Assembly: GCA_016840405.1 (NCBI GenBank)
Contig: JAEOSK010000002.1
Span: forward strand, 68,042 to 132,041
DNA length: 64,000 bases
Direction of reading: 5' to 3'
Origin: Candidatus Hermodarchaeum yapensis
GTDB taxonomy: Archaea; Asgardarchaeota; Hermodarchaeia; Hermodarchaeales; Hermodarchaeaceae
Position 1 is the stretch's first letter, and each line of letters begins with the position of its first letter. Both the position numbers and the translations under genes were made by a program. Positions 33,100 through 48,427 of this stretch are shown here, piece by piece. Under the pieces are notes generated by a model that did no database searches, was not told where the DNA came from, and saw only the letters and a list, made by a program, of their open reading frames with translations.

Positions 33100-33286
33100 G
33101 ATTTATCCTACCCTCCTCTCATTTTTTTGCACTCACTCATCCATCTTTCTCCTTTTTTCAATCGTTTTCATTCGCTGTACCGATGAAAGAAAATGGCTAC
33201 TTCTGTGTCTCTGACAGGATTTTTTTTGCACGTGAAGTTCAGCTCTTTTTAGGTGTATGTGACGGTTAGCCTTTGGTGACTAATCC

Positions 33287-33604
33287 TTGGGACGCACGGT
33301 ACCTACCTATCGGTTGCAATTGGAAAAGGAGCGCCGCCGCTGGGGTCTTTTTCGCACAGCTCTTCGGGCGGACGAACAACCTGCCTTTGATAATCTCTTC
33401 ATCTATGCTCGGACCTATGCAGATGCTGCCAGCGCGGTGGCCCGCCCCTGTCCTTCTGAGGCGATTTTCATGTCCATGATTCTGGGGCTCTATCAGGAGG
33501 TGCAACGCCTCCGGCTCGCGCTTGCGGCGGCTGCACGCAACGCCCGTCCTTTTGAGGATCAGAATTATCATGAGTATGTGCGGCGCGTACAAGCCGAAAT
33601 ATGA
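33287..33604 (+). CDS. hypothetical protein in a GC-rich islet (TTG start)
   Basis: 105-aa helical protein (PTYRLQLEKERRRWGLFRTALRADEQPAFDNLF...). The strand choice over the antisense ORF 33266-33607 is tentative. Confidence 0.4.
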   Translation: MGRTVPTYRLQLEKERRRWGLFRTALRADEQPAFDNLFIYARTYADAASAVARPCPSEAIFMSMILGLYQEVQRLRLALAAAARNARPFEDQNYHEYVRRVQAEI

Positions 33605-44470: not shown

Positions 44471-47400
44471 TCAACCCCTAAGATGCGGGTCCAAGAGTGT
44501 TTGGATTGGTTTTTCATTGAAATGTTCAACCAGCCGTTCGTAATTCCAGCCAAGCGGCGTGAGGAGAGTATCTGCTGCGCGGAGTAGCAGTTGTGCGTAT
44601 TTGTCTTTGTCGTAGTGGGTTGCAGCTGATGTGTGAGGAAGTGCGACGCGGCGTAGGGGATGGCGTGACAGGGCATCAGTATGTACGTAGCGAACGGGTT
44701 GTCCAGGCTGGATGTCTTGGCCATACCGCATCGCTAGTTCAGCTGCGATGGCTTGGCTACACTGCTGTTGATATTCGCCTGGTGACCGACTGATATTTTG
44801 GGTGATGACGAGATCATCGATAGCCACGTCACCATTATGCAGACGTTCTAGATAGTCTTTGACGATGTCGAAGAGCTGGGGCAGCATCTCTTGCATCTCT
44901 TCAGCTTCTTCGGCACCCGCAAGACAGGTCAGTAGGTCCATTTGAAGCTGCTTGATATATGGTGGGGTGTCACGGCGTCGGAGTTCGATGCCACGTACTT
45001 TGATGGTGCCATCTTCTTTGACGCCGCAGTAACGGGTTAGAGCACCATAGGGCTGATTGCGGCAGGGGAGGAACATAATCCAGCGGTAGCGCCCTTCAAA
45101 CTCCATCGACAGTCCCGTTTTCTCTTGGATGGCTTCACCTACCGCTAGATAGTCGTCGACGGTGGCTCCCGGTTTTTGGAGCCAGACACAATCCACAATA
45201 CCATGGAGCACTTGGAATCCTCGCTGTTCGCTTACGGCTTTGGTCTGTAAGAGGACGCGACGACTAAATGCCGTGACACACTCATAAGCTTCGACACGAC
45301 CAAAACGTGAGGCCCGAAAACCCAAATAGCCAAAACAGTTGTGTGTAAAGATGCCTCCTTTCCCAGCTGCGAATCCTGATAAGGGGCTATCTACTTCGAA
45401 GCAGTACACATACTTGGATGTGGGTGTTACTTTAGCGATTTCCGTAACCTTGGAAAAACCAATATCGCTTTCTATCAACTGTTTGATGAAGGCTAGTTGC
45501 TCTTGGTCTATTTTGGAGAGCGTCGGTTTATCAAGAAGTTTGGCTATCTGTGTTGTTGCAGCTGCTCGTTGAGTTCTCTCAGCTAGATCAATTCGTGGGT
45601 TTCTGACTGTTCGATACTTCTGAGCAAGCTGGCGTAAACGAGTTTCGTGAACGGGAATTCCTCTGATTAGTGAATGTGGACGTTGGCTAGCGTTCTTGCT
45701 GCGGAGGATCCGCTCGTGTTTTCTTTTCAGGGAACTGTGGGATAGGATTTCGGTCAGGCTTCGCATTCCATTGATGCGGAATGCATGTGTCACGCCTTTC
45801 TTTTTGGAACGGTTTAGCAGGAAATCGATGTCCAAGGTTAATGCCATGTAGCCCAACTGGTTGAGTAACTTTTCGCTTTTAGTGCCTATTCGAATTACGT
45901 TTCGGGTCTTTTCGATAGATCCATCGCTTGCGATGAGGCCTGCAAGAAACTCGTAACGCACTGCTCTTGGCGCATTAAGGATATAGAACGGTATTTGAAG
46001 TCGACCTTGACTCGCTGTATGTCCAATCAAGAATGCCTTTTCCAATAATTCAACGAGAGCGGTGCTATTGATTTGTATGACGTACATGTTTGCATTTGTT
46101 TCTTTACGGATCTGTCCTTTCAGACCAAAGCTCGTCGAAATGATTCGGTTGATTCTCTTGAGGAGGGCAACATCTTCTGCATTCACATCTAGTCGGATCA
46201 TGTTCCGAGTTGCACTTCCATCTCCGACAAAGAAGCCTAACAGGAAAGCTAGATTCTCATCAAGCGACACTGTGGCAGGAATCCATTTCACTAGTCCACC
46301 CTTGCGTCTTCCCCGCCCAATTTGCAACTGTCGATGTTTTTCAGCAGAGAGGTGAAGCAACTTGAAATATCGGAGGGGGATGTACCCTTCTCGCTGCCAG
46401 TTGTTGAGGGCTTGGACAGTATGACTGCCCTGAGACAAAGCAGACATGATTGTATTGCGATTCTCTATGATGGCTTTTCTTAAGATAGGACCATGGACTC
46501 TCCACGTATCAAGGGTGTTCCTAGAATGCTGGTTGAGGAGAATTTCTATGAAGTCAAATTGCTTTTGTTTCGAGCTTGAAGGAACAGATAGCATGACAGG
46601 TAGAAAGTCACCGCGTTTGAGTTGTCGAGTTTCTTTAGTCATCAATCGGCCATTGTCAAGAACATAGGATGGGTGATCGGGGGTAAGGGTAATCTCTCGA
46701 CCTCCCTCCAAAATGACCTTAAGAAGAGTGTCTGGTGCGTTAAGCTTGAAGAACTGCTTCACTGGGGCGAAGGTTGCTTTGTACTGCTCATCCAGCCCGA
46801 TAACCTGGACATCAAGATGGCAAGGTTGTACGCTAGGCGACGTAAGATGTTGGTCGATAAATTGTCCTATCTTAACAAGTTGTAGGTCACCATTGATTCT
46901 TACTGGTACTATCTCGTCAGAATCCAAACACACAACGAGCAACCATTTGAGGGCAGATTGTCGGGCTTCATAGATTGGATTGTCGTGGCGGCGCTTCTTG
47001 TAGTAAGTGCGTTTCTCAAGTATTGGTTTGAGGAAGGTAGGGACGATTCCGATTTCTCGTTGGCACAGCCAGTAGCCTAGTTCGGGGACGATGGTGGCGT
47101 CATCGGGGCAGCAGTCACAGAAGAGTGCCTCGGGGGAGATGTTGTGTTTGACCATCAGTGATGGATACATGGACAGAAAATCGAGTTCCCCCACATCACT
47201 GAACACTCCGACACGCGGAGTAATGACATGACCACCTCGGTCTGCGTTGAGCAGTTCGATGCCCGTCTTGTACTGTTCGGGGTCGGCTTTGGTTTCCGGG
47301 ATTAGCACACCACGTCTGAGGGCTTCCTGCATCTGTAGCATGTTAATCCCTGTGCCGGGGCTGCTGCGTGCCATGCGTTGTGGCGGAAAGGCAGTGAGTC

Positions 47401-48265
47401 GACATCCCTCAATCAAGCCGTGGAAGTCGCCAAAGGTCATATATGATCGGTCCAAGTGTAACCGTCCTCGCAGAATGAAGGGGTGCGGTCGATAGAAGAC
47501 TGGACCGCCATATCGGAACACGGCACGGCCAGCAGGCAAGGTCTTATCACTAAAGACGTGGGGTGTGTGGTCACGGTTCAAGGAGAACTGTTGTAACATT
47601 CCTGCCTCGCCGACGCGTTGGATGAGTGCTGGTAAAATGTGGGCGTCACCTCTCTCGGTGAAAATGATGTCGGGATTCTGGGCGGTGATCCAGTCTTGGA
47701 GCATCATGGGTTCGGTGGTCTGTAGGGTGTCCCCTTTGGAGCTGGCTGCGGTGAAAAGGTCCTCCCCTTCCAGGCGGAGGTCCACGGTGTCGAAGGGAGG
47801 GAGATCATAGTCGAGAGCCAATTGGGAGTCGCAGGAGTCGATTCGGGTCACGCGGGTCCTCGACTGATTGGTGTGGACCTCTACCTGTTCGAAGGGGTAG
47901 CGCTGCTGCTCGAGATACCACAGCTGCGTTGCAGAGAGATCGCCGTTGAAGACGCGAAAACGGGGAACGGCGAGGGCTTTGAGTTCGCGGACGACACGGG
48001 GGAGTTGGGTGCAGGAGGAAACTGTAACGGCGAGAACCGGACGTCGCGGGCCCCGCAGCTGCAGCCGATGAAACTCGGGTGTCACGGCGCTCACGTGGGG
48101 GTGACTCTCAAATAGCGGCGCATAGTCCTCGAATTGGACGCCCGGCGCATGTAAGTAGAACCGTGGCTGATAGGACACCTCCAGCGGTACACACGCCTCA
48201 GCCGTTCGTAACCACAGGATCAAATGGTCCGGCTGGGCGGTTATGTCGAGGATCCAGCCACGCAT
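44471..48265 (-). CDS. polB: family-B DNA polymerase homolog with non-canonical Exo and Pol-C motifs, interrupted by an intein
   Basis: N-terminus MRGWILDI, motif A ELDFLSMYPS, motif B KWLLVV|CFGYLG split by the intein, motif C position HGIVDC, KxY-region IKVRGIELRRRD. Confidence 0.85.
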   Translation of the reverse strand: MRGWILDITAQPDHLILWLRTAEACVPLEVSYQPRFYLHAPGVQFEDYAPLFESHPHVSAVTPEFHRLQLRGPRRPVLAVTVSSCTQLPRVVRELKALAVPRFRVFNGDLSATQLWYLEQQRYPFEQVEVHTNQSRTRVTRIDSCDSQLALDYDLPPFDTVDLRLEGEDLFTAASSKGDTLQTTEPMMLQDWITAQNPDIIFTERGDAHILPALIQRVGEAGMLQQFSLNRDHTPHVFSDKTLPAGRAVFRYGGPVFYRPHPFILRGRLHLDRSYMTFGDFHGLIEGCRLTAFPPQRMARSSPGTGINMLQMQEALRRGVLIPETKADPEQYKTGIELLNADRGGHVITPRVGVFSDVGELDFLSMYPSLMVKHNISPEALFCDCCPDDATIVPELGYWLCQREIGIVPTFLKPILEKRTYYKKRRHDNPIYEARQSALKWLLVVCLDSDEIVPVRINGDLQLVKIGQFIDQHLTSPSVQPCHLDVQVIGLDEQYKATFAPVKQFFKLNAPDTLLKVILEGGREITLTPDHPSYVLDNGRLMTKETRQLKRGDFLPVMLSVPSSSKQKQFDFIEILLNQHSRNTLDTWRVHGPILRKAIIENRNTIMSALSQGSHTVQALNNWQREGYIPLRYFKLLHLSAEKHRQLQIGRGRRKGGLVKWIPATVSLDENLAFLLGFFVGDGSATRNMIRLDVNAEDVALLKRINRIISTSFGLKGQIRKETNANMYVIQINSTALVELLEKAFLIGHTASQGRLQIPFYILNAPRAVRYEFLAGLIASDGSIEKTRNVIRIGTKSEKLLNQLGYMALTLDIDFLLNRSKKKGVTHAFRINGMRSLTEILSHSSLKRKHERILRSKNASQRPHSLIRGIPVHETRLRQLAQKYRTVRNPRIDLAERTQRAAATTQIAKLLDKPTLSKIDQEQLAFIKQLIESDIGFSKVTEIAKVTPTSKYVYCFEVDSPLSGFAAGKGGIFTHNCFGYLGFRASRFGRVEAYECVTAFSRRVLLQTKAVSEQRGFQVLHGIVDCVWLQKPGATVDDYLAVGEAIQEKTGLSMEFEGRYRWIMFLPCRNQPYGALTRYCGVKEDGTIKVRGIELRRRDTPPYIKQLQMDLLTCLAGAEEAEEMQEMLPQLFDIVKDYLERLHNGDVAIDDLVITQNISRSPGEYQQQCSQAIAAELAMRYGQDIQPGQPVRYVHTDALSRHPLRRVALPHTSAATHYDKDKYAQLLLRAADTLLTPLGWNYERLVEHFNEKPIQTLLDPHLRG
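45338..46930 (-). mobile_element. 531-aa intein with LAGLIDADG homing-endonuclease domain, inserted in polB motif B
   Basis: N-terminal Cys (VV|CLDSDE), C-terminal THN|C junction, dodecapeptide motifs LAFLLGFFVGDGSA and EFLAGLIASDGSI. Junction codons checked by hand (TGT at 46928-46930; AAC 45338-45340; +1 TGT 45335-45337). Confidence 0.85.
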
Positions 48266-48293
48266 TGTCGGTCAGAGCGTGTCTCCCACTTAC

Positions 48294-48301
48294 CTATTTA
48301 A
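48294..48301 (-). promoter_or_regulatory. TATA box (TTTAAATA on the minus strand) about 28 nt upstream of the polB ATG; near-leaderless transcript predicted
   Basis: Sequence read directly. The spacing fits archaeal TATA-to-TSS distance, with a TSS a few nt before the ATG. Confidence 0.4.
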
Positions 48302-48427
48302 AGCCGGAATCTCGAATGCAAAAGAATCACCCTCCTTTGGAACTAAAAGGGGTTTTTTTGTACGGATGTATCTCGCCTCTTGCAACGCAGGTTAGTCGTG
48401 TGAGAAGGAGCTTCCCTGACAATACTG

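Follow-up and report, generated by a model that had tools for sequence, protein, structure and literature searches.

The gene at positions 44471-48265 of the window (the whole stretch of 64,000 nucleotides that was analysed) encodes a member of the known PolB2 family, earlier termed "inactivated" PolB, which was described by Rogozin in 2008 (PMC2527604) and also treated by Makarova in 2014 (PMC4104785). By analogy with the enzymes of Sulfolobus, we consider it probable, at roughly three chances in four, that this protein is a translesion extender polymerase and that in this Asgard archaeon it forms the catalytic subunit of an archaeal PolB2 "mutasome". The new points are minor: an intein, the dispersal of the partner genes and a sister relation, as yet only possible, to the PolB2 of bacteria. 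The coordinates of all features are collected in Table 1.

Table 1. Features of the PolB2 gene and of the PPB2 gene in the window
Feature	Position	Strand	Remarks
PolB2 precursor gene	44471..48265	-	1264 aa with intein, single open frame
N-extein, residues 1-445	46931..48265	-	N-terminal domain; exonuclease-like domain devoid of catalytic residues; motif A; first part of motif B
LAGLIDADG homing-endonuclease intein, 531 aa, C446 to N976	45338..46930	-	between KWLLVV and CFGYLG
C-extein, residues 977-1264 and stop	44471..45337	-	remainder of motif B, motif C, thumb, C-terminal tail
Exo I position, PPFDTVDLRLEG	47765-47800	-	no DxE
Exo II region, NPDIIFTERGDAHILPAL	47624-47677	-	
PEQYKTGIELLNADRGG	47231..47281	-	PolB2-specific FxxA-like iRadA-binding motif and D(K/R) motif contacting PPB2 (predicted roles)
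Motif A, ELDFLSMYPS	47159..47188	-	catalytic Asp362 and steric-gate Tyr367 retained; aligns to SLDFRSLYPS of P. abyssi PolB
Motif B, first part, KWLLVV	46931-46948	-	followed by the intein
Motif B, second part, CFGYLG	45320-45337	-	after the intein
Motif C, HGIVDC	45188-45205	-	HxxxD form of YxDTD; distal metal-binding Asp retained
Conserved block after KxY, IKVRGIELRRRD	44969-45004	-	
QTLLDPHL	44480..44503	-	C-terminal PIP-box-like candidate PCNA-binding motif
Putative polB2 promoter	48293..48326	-	TTCTTTTGCA (48317-48326), 14 nt, TATA-like TTTAAATAGG (48293-48302), 37 nt to ATG
PPB2 (arCOG07300-type PolB2 partner), 105 aa	33287..33604	+	starts MGRTVPTYR, TTG start codon
Putative PPB2 promoter	33224..33253	+	TTTTGCA (33224-33230), 14 nt, TATA-like CTTTTTAGG (33245-33253), 42 nt to start

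The product was matched by the Pfam domain DNA_pol_B in two stretches (2.6e-27), as well as by intein and LAGLIDADG domains, and its top NCBIfam matches were NF004418 and NF004416 ("type B DNA-directed DNA polymerase"); the Pfam search gave no match of DNA_pol_B_exo1 in the precursor, which is made of a 733-aa extein and of the intein lodged within motif B. We placed the motifs by alignment to the solved Thermococcales PolB structures and to the canonical PolB1 of the same genome. The Exo I position reads D-L-R or R-L-E according to the alignment used, and the residue is variable among orthologues; ERGDAHI sits opposite the NGDNFD of Exo II, and the YxxxD segment of Exo III is deleted. The catalytic residues of the three exonuclease motifs are thus all absent, which means that proofreading is absent too, as a preliminary description of this DNA had supposed. 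Motif B is devoid of the canonical Asn/Ser/Tyr, HGIVDC aligns to YIDTDG and YGDTDS with its first Asp lost and the second kept, and the counterpart of KxY is T-R-Y in ALTRYCG, where Thr replaces the Lys. The canonical PolB1/PolB3 set (intact Exo I-III, KxxxNSxYG, YxDTDS) is not found in this protein.

The preliminary description had claimed non-canonical exonuclease and polymerase motifs, and all the strings that it quoted are present on the minus strand, including the altered Exo II and motif C and the two halves of motif B on either side of the intein. Some details have to be amended. Motif A is intact and has the string given, but it ends at 47188 and not at 47185; the Exo I stretch does lack a D-x-E, but its end is 47800 instead of 47794; and IKVRGIELRRRD, which had been taken for the KxY region, is the conserved block that comes after it.

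The PolB2 signature (ExDF, KW[IL]LVxCFGYLG, HxxxD and DRGG) is near-invariant and is common to 106 homologues, 18 close and 88 distant, and to the PolB2 of Haloferax volcanii. Asp362 of motif A is present in 106/106 homologues and Glu360, which is PolB2-specific, in 104 of the 106; the H, V and D of motif C are invariant among them. D362, D494 (extein numbering), the motif B Lys K440 and Y367 are invariant across about 65% sequence divergence. Judged from these sequences, the motif changes are family-wide and near-invariant and are not the decay of one gene. The HxxxD motif has been named as a hallmark of PolB2 (PMC8764526).

In a tree built with IQ-TREE (LG+C20 PMSF), in which the comparison sequences were the PolB1 and the PolB1-like paralogue of the same genome, without PolB3 or Sulfolobus PolB2, a 100/100 branch unites the protein with the H. 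volcanii PolB2 and 30 homologues, apart from the other PolBs of the genome. This placement, proposed earlier as a check, agrees with the motifs and bears out the suggested membership of the "inactivated" family. Bacterial PolB2 appears as the sister clade with 97/92 support, but an affiliation with the remaining Asgard PolB2 is not rejected by the AU test (p = 0.235). Among archaeal PolB2, that of this lineage may stand closest to the bacterial PolB2 clade as a whole; if this is true, it would hint at the donor lineage of the single transfer of the PolB2 system that has been proposed from archaea to bacteria, or else at a transfer back.

Compared with 8 orthologues, polB2 has a dN/dS of 0.05-0.09, and its exonuclease-like part of 0.09-0.15. 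This is a functional gene under strong purifying selection. The AlphaFold2 model of a 96%-identical intein-free orthologue (pLDDT 90, pTM 0.86) matches KOD PolB over its full length with a TM of 0.76. The gene is flanked by genes for an aminotransferase, a small membrane protein and a C11 peptidase, and both its position and its synteny, among housekeeping or membrane genes, are kept across the genus. Against a role as replicase, PolB2 is patchy: it was found in 17 of the 31 genomes searched (this one and 30 relatives), and among those that lack it, six have a completeness of 95% or more.

The intein carries the Pfam domains Intein_splicing, LAGLIDADG_3 (twice) and Hom_end. Its splicing features are Cys1 (CLDSDE...), a TPDH block B, the terminal HN and Cys+1 (...FTHN|C), and its LAGLIDADG motifs, LLGFFVGDGS and LAGLIASDGS, each retain an acidic residue. 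Its GC content, 45.5%, equals the genome mean. We rejected a recent copy of another intein of the same genome as its source, as it is 22-24% identical to the inteins of PolB1 and DP2. Orthologues without the intein exist at up to 97% identity, and the intein-bearing and intein-free alleles constitute a natural pair for studies of how an intein splices and homes within a repair polymerase.

The linkage of polB2 with its partner genes in an operon is typical of the PolB2 family and stands outside its definition. The partners are PPB2, a helical protein of about 90 aa beginning with MGRT, and iRadA, a RadA with an inactive ATPase and no N-terminal domain. PPB2 lies directly upstream of PolB2 at 63 of 80 related loci, and an iRadA-sized gene directly precedes PPB2 in 51 of these 63; the HMMs that we used were built from the 63 PPB2 genes, which come from other lineages, and from the 51 iRadA-sized genes. 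Among the immediate neighbours of polB2 we found neither partner. The PPB2 HMM has a sole match in the whole genome (3e-26), 11 kb from polB2 and convergent with it, and the iRadA HMM matches a gene on another contig, C58:75968-76762 (6.9e-17, vs 2.2e-9 for true RadA). This gene and the operon iRadA of an Asgard relative, G029, whose iRadA-PPB2-PolB2 operon is intact, are reciprocal best hits. In the gene on C58, Walker A reads YGSPHCTQ, the Asp of Walker B is changed to Asn, and the product has neither ATPase motifs nor the N-terminal domain. The dispersal of the three genes is repeated across the genus. PPB2 is present in 16 of the 17 related genomes with PolB2 (this one included), its start codon being fixed in position and ATG, GTG or TTG by species; in three genomes of the genus iRadA was found with PolB2 and PPB2 undetected, at a completeness of only 72-87%.

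Upstream of both polB2 and PPB2 we noticed a common T[CT]TTGCA-N14-TATA layout, a putative promoter whose two blocks are kept in 12 species for polB2, where the flanks vary, and in 11 species for PPB2. It is absent upstream of iRadA and from the operons of other Asgard relatives, and a genome-wide scan for the pattern returned 19 sites, about the chance level, with no wider regulon. Taken with a high G+C content that is likewise shared, the co-occurrence across genomes and the promoter layout may be signs that the mutasome genes were separated in this Asgard lineage yet retained together. The joint reading, a mutasome split at the gene level yet kept as a unit and with a PolB2 closest to the bacterial clade, appears doubtful to us. 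This genome also shows that PolB2 partners can be found outside an operon, a relevant point for surveys in which the system is recognised by the adjacency of its genes.

The protein might work as follows. Its intact splicing residues suggest that the intein excises itself from motif B after translation to leave a 733-aa polymerase. This polymerase would have the full PolB fold, its exonuclease-like domain, deprived of catalytic residues, acting as a scaffold without proofreading. The residues used in catalysis would be Asp362 in motif A and, in HGIVD, the distal Asp; going by their sequences, all PolB2 have His in place of the Tyr, and Ile in place of the first Asp, which is not a ligand. Like Sulfolobus Dpo2, the enzyme would extend mismatched or lesion-opposed primer ends made by another polymerase, and the Y-family polymerase encoded in the genome is a candidate for this first step. 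Its probable partners are a PPB2 trimer and the ATPase-dead RadA, which would be bound via the YKTG...DRGG loop. In the family this loop has the consensus PExFK[ST]AxELLxxDRGG, with E, K, L, D and G invariant; D342 of the D(K/R) motif is invariant and R343 near-invariant, while the changes of F to Y and of A to G in the FxxA-like part are limited to the clade studied here. The roles of both motifs rest on AlphaFold models (PMC11791011). Since these iRadA-contact residues are changed and the three genes are unlinked, the complex is possibly different or looser in this lineage. The C-terminal tail Qxx[L]xx[H/Y/F][L/I], kept in the clade (Q in 16/18, L in 17/18) and modelled as a short helix within a disordered region, could provide a tether to PCNA.

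The preliminary description had regarded polymerase activity as doubtful and the protein as a structural or regulatory paralogue, in line with the 2008 proposal (PMC2527604) of a catalytically dead PolB whose role in replication is structural or regulatory only. This would account for the loss of the first Asp and the Tyr of YGDTD, of the Asn/Ser/Tyr of motif B, of the Lys of KxY and of all the exonuclease residues, and strong purifying selection also fits a structural role. However, a scaffold would not demand that the metal-ligating and dNTP-contacting residues D362, D494, K440 and Y367 be all invariant. Moreover, the PolB2 of S. islandicus and S. solfataricus, which have the HxxxD motif C, are when purified robust polymerases without exonuclease that extend mismatches and lesions, and Sulfolobus PolB2 is required for damage-induced mutagenesis (Feng 2022, PMC8764526). 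Hence a dead paralogue appears quite unlikely, and a translesion extender is the best reading; to call the enzyme dead from its motifs only would repeat the inference of 2008, later overturned by biochemistry. We infer the activity of the whole family from that of the Sulfolobus enzymes, the smallest and most divergent PolB2. An active exonuclease-free polymerase could also have a main job other than translesion synthesis, for instance recombination-associated or origin-independent synthesis with its RadA-like partner. That this partner is a RadA homologue, that Orc1/Cdc6 genes adjoin PolB2 in many archaea, that alternative initiation or stalled-fork processing was raised by Makarova 2014 (PMC4104785) and that the unlinked genes permit separate uses all point this way. 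Yet the partner, without ATPase motifs and N-terminal domain, would be unable to act as a recombinase, and genetics and kinetics in Sulfolobus favour damage-induced mutagenesis and extension (PMC8764526), so that we find such a main job unlikely.

Finally, the full-length PolB fold would also suit the main replicase, a pseudogene in decay or the polymerase of a mobile element, but we regard these as very improbable. As the preliminary description had anticipated for the replicase, the genome encodes both PolD and, on contig C40, a canonical PolB1 with all the expected motifs (DIE/NGDNFD/YGDTDS; 6e-198 to Sso Dpo1). Its survey, also suggested earlier, revealed on contig C33 a PolB1-like exo-less paralogue, for which we rejected a split gene as no exonuclease half adjoins it. 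The polymerase set of this Asgard genome is thus PolB1, the PolB1-like exo-less paralogue, PolB2 with PPB2 and iRadA, PolD and PolY. Against a pseudogene stand the intact frame and the low dN/dS, and against a mobile element the conserved position and synteny and a neighbourhood free of genes for Cas1, a terminal protein or an integrase. The N-extein has a GC content of 57.1%, above that of all 1120 long ORFs in the genome, and the GC-rich exteins could hint at a foreign origin; the RadA gene has just as high a GC content, so that composition by itself does not speak for horizontal transfer. The apt annotation would remain, by analogy, an exonuclease-free translesion extender polymerase.

Among known systems, eukaryotic DNA polymerase zeta (Rev3) offers a functional analogy, being a multi-subunit B-family enzyme that lacks proofreading and takes over from a Y-family inserter to extend termini that are mismatched or opposite a lesion (PMC8764526); it differs in its canonical YxDTD and its other accessory subunits, and it is not orthologous to PolB2. 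The Pol V mutasome of E. coli (UmuD'2C-RecA) is similar in architecture, as a protein of the RecA/RadA family and a small oligomeric subunit are joined to its translesion polymerase (PMC11791011), whereas its catalytic subunit is of the Y family and not homologous to PolB2, and its RecA-ATP is active. Nearer is the PolB2 of H. volcanii (HVO_A0065), in the same clade of the tree, which shares ELDF, KWILVACFGY.G, HGIVDS and DRGG; relatives on haloarchaeal megaplasmids, other than the H. volcanii copy, are about 32-33% identical over some 95% of the length. The H. volcanii gene is borne by plasmid pHV4 near PPB2-like and iRadA-like genes (with a TnpB insertion between), SRAP and Cdc6, it has no intein, and it can be deleted (PMC7776575). 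Dpo2 (PolB2) of Sulfolobus islandicus and Saccharolobus solfataricus belongs to the same family, with HxxxD for YxDTD, lost exonuclease motifs and the partners PPB2 and iRadA. Biochemical characterisation is limited to these members, which are active and exonuclease-free extenders of mismatches and lesions (PMC8764526, PMC11791011); damage-inducible expression is likewise known only for the Sulfolobus enzymes (PMC8764526). Sulfolobus Dpo2, the smallest PolB2, has a strongly decayed exonuclease domain, while that of the Asgard protein is structurally complete (model TM 0.76 to KOD PolB); compared with the published descriptions of the Sulfolobus system, the Asgard PolB2 stands out by its intein and its dispersed partner genes.

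The Pfam profile DNA_pol_B matches the open reading frame of polB2 as two stretches, between which lies an intein with two LAGLIDADG motifs. This intein has Cys as its first residue, His-Asn as its last ones and Cys as the following (+1) residue of the extein, so that the extein left after its removal would count 733 aa, with KWLLVV fused to CFGYLG. The motifs quoted in the preliminary description were all found, their coordinates being off by 3-6 nt at most. In the HMMER alignment with the solved structures of Thermococcales PolB, ELDFLSMYPS is aligned with SLDFRSLYPS, HGIVDC faces YIDTDG and DIIFTERGDAHILP faces DVIITYNGDNFAFP; the metal ligands are retained. On one point the reading has to be corrected: IKVRGIELRRRD, previously taken for the KxY region, is the block past KxY, whose actual counterpart is T-R-Y. 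An L-INS-i alignment took in the canonical PolB1 of the same genome (LALDIEVE, FNGDNFD, YNWQD, YGDTDS). In this alignment PolB2 has no Exo I DxE, Ile replaces the catalytic Asp of Exo II and the YxxxD segment of Exo III is deleted. The exonuclease residues are lost, and with them proofreading, as had been proposed.

Table. Features of the PolB2 system of Candidatus Hermodarchaeum yapensis (window coordinates unless a contig is named)
Feature	Position	Strand	Remarks
PolB2 precursor ORF	44471-48265	minus	1264 aa
Intein	45338-46930	minus	residues 446-976 of the PolB2 precursor
Intein junction in polB2	45320-45337 / 46931-46948	minus	Cys+1 association perfect
Putative polB2 promoter	48293-48326	minus	T[CT]TTGCA-N14-TATA layout
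PPB2	33287-33604	plus	105 aa, MGRTVPTYR (Arg3, Arg9), TTG start, GC-rich
Putative PPB2 promoter	33224-33253	plus	T[CT]TTGCA-N14-TATA layout
iRadA	own genome C58:75968-76762 (HMM hit 75911-76762)	plus	outside the window; stands alone
PolB1-like paralogue	own genome C33:39734-41704	plus	656 aa

This motif pattern is exactly what the literature calls PolB2: at least two replacements in YGDTD with the distal Asp kept, DIE absent (Rogozin 2008, PMC2527604), and a motif defined as HxxxD (Feng 2022, PMC8764526). In maximum-likelihood trees the query groups with the PolB2 of Haloferax volcanii and 30 archaeal and bacterial homologues, and a 100/100 branch parts this group from the two other PolBs of the genome. 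Hence the protein belongs to the family of "inactivated" PolB to which it had been assigned at first sight. Under a site-heterogeneous model, a long stem leads to the Hermod-type PolB2 clade, whose sister group is the monophyletic clade of all bacterial PolB2 sampled (UFBoot 97 / SH-aLRT 92 for the sister branch), the other Asgard PolB2 lying apart; grouping the clade with the latter is not rejected by the AU test (p = 0.235). A relative of the same genus, G012, has a second PolB2 on its 4.2 kb contig C80 (41% identical, PPB2 directly upstream); this could represent another system or else contamination from binning.

Searching 5.8 billion proteins with the extein returned 18 full-length close homologues (65-97% identity), some with the intein and some without, and about 1500 remoter ones (33-40%). 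Over 106 aligned sequences E-[VL]-D-F-x-S-M-Y-P, K-W-[IL]-L-V-[TV]-[CS]-F-G-Y-L-G, H-G-I-V-D-[SC], D-R-G-G and K-V-R-G-x-E-x-R-R-R-D-T-P are near-invariant, and DxE occurs in none of the 106. The odd motifs are thus a family signature rather than decay. The gene is under purifying selection, with dN/dS of 0.05-0.09 against eight orthologues (0.09-0.15 in the exonuclease-like part, 0.03-0.09 in the polymerase part), and the fold is complete: the AlphaFold2 model of a 96%-identical intein-free orthologue (pLDDT 90, pTM 0.86) superposes full-length on KOD and 9°N PolB as well as on E. coli Pol II (TM 0.74-0.76 for the first two, 0.73 for the last), so that the exonuclease-like domain is a folded scaffold. 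The idea of a non-catalytic role is outdated, as Sulfolobus Dpo2, when purified, proved a robust polymerase devoid of exonuclease, efficiently extending mismatches and lesion-opposed termini (Feng 2022, PMC8764526).

PolB2 is not the replicase, as already surmised, since the genome (86% complete) has a canonical PolB1 and the PolD subunit DP2 and since PolB2 is patchily distributed among Asgard relatives. This PolB1 (contig C40, a 1668-aa frame with inteins in motifs A and B) has every canonical motif and matches Sso Dpo1 at 6e-198; DP2 (contig C3, 1698 aa) has one intein, which with that of PolB2 makes four in the replication and repair polymerases of this one genome. A Y-family polymerase is also encoded. 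In the PolB1-like paralogue on contig C33, motif A is canonical and YGDTDS is present, motif B is aberrant (KLLLVSSGGVTIRI) and the C-terminus, QKRLQDFV, is PIP-like; the protein has no exonuclease domain, nor was a split exonuclease half found next to its gene. This gene may be more unusual than polB2 itself.

PolB2 has been linked with two partners, an inactivated RadA (here called iRadA) and arCOG07300 (here called PPB2) (Makarova 2014, PMC4104785). By scanning small ORFs for an MGRT start we found PPB2, whose gene is convergent with polB2 at a distance of 11 kb. A PPB2 homologue lies immediately upstream of PolB2 at 63 of 80 loci sampled from named genomes (Bathyarchaeia, Methanomassiliicoccales, Methanoperedens, Hadarchaeota, many bacteria), and an HMM built from those 63 alone matched one ORF in the genome, that of the window (3e-26). 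This "orphan" ORF encodes PPB2, a subunit of the proposed PolB2 complex. Its start codon varies among species (ATG, GTG, TTG); it is kept in 16 of 31 genomes (ours and 30 relatives), PolB2 being detected in these 16 and one more. PPB2 directly precedes PolB2 at three more distant Asgard loci, and the Asgard relative G029 has a complete iRadA-PPB2-PolB2 operon. An HMM of 51 operon-encoded iRadA scores the C58 protein at 6.9e-17 against 2.2e-9 for the true RadA. This protein, an ATPase-dead RadA paralogue, lacks the RadA N-terminal domain and reads YGSPHCTQ at Walker A and VNG in place of the Walker B VDS; it and the operon iRadA of G029 are each other's best match. About 1 kb downstream lies a convergent EndoIII/MutY-like glycosylase gene. 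With PPB2 in the window and iRadA on C58, no member of the triad is missing, but the three genes lie apart, and they do so in the same manner across the genus.

The G+C content of the PolB2 exteins (57% and 52.5%), PPB2 (57%) and iRadA (51.6%) is in the top 0-2% of the genome (ORF mean 45.5 +/- 2.8%), that of the PolB2 intein being exactly average. This does not speak for a transfer, because RadA is GC-rich too (55%). A T[CT]TTGCA-N14-TATA-N30 layout is common to polB2 and PPB2 and kept in 11-12 species; T[CT]TTGCA-N14-TATA is not enriched across the genome and is absent upstream of iRadA. A site for a common regulator of the two genes is possible.

In motif B, the alignment column that holds the intein also holds the second PolB1 intein, but the two are only about 23% identical. 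In the clade, the +1 residue is Cys (TGT) in all intein-bearing alleles and Ser (TCN) or Ala in all 15 listed intein-free ones; Cys is the most frequent residue there in the wider family. The Ser/Ala allele may be immune to homing, or else Cys may be needed for splicing.

Once spliced, PolB2 would act as a polymerase extending after a Y-family inserter, in a complex with PPB2 and iRadA, and might bind PCNA through QTLLDPHL. Modelled complexes have the composition PolB2 : iRadA : PPB2(3), with an FxxA-like loop and a D(K/R) motif on PolB2 and an N-terminal MGRT in PPB2, PIP motifs occurring occasionally (Timinskas 2025, PMC11791011); in the Hermod-type clade the iRadA-contact residues are altered (F->Y, A->G). 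The PolB2 of H. volcanii (HVO_A0065, on pHV4) carries ELDF, KWILVACFGY, HGIVDS and DRGG, and its neighbourhood holds PPB2-sized, iRadA-sized, SRAP and Cdc6 genes. Since Thorarchaeota PolB2 already figures in a published alignment (PMC8764526), the window PolB2 is a further Asgard member of a known family, its minor novelties being the intein and the separate location of its partner genes.
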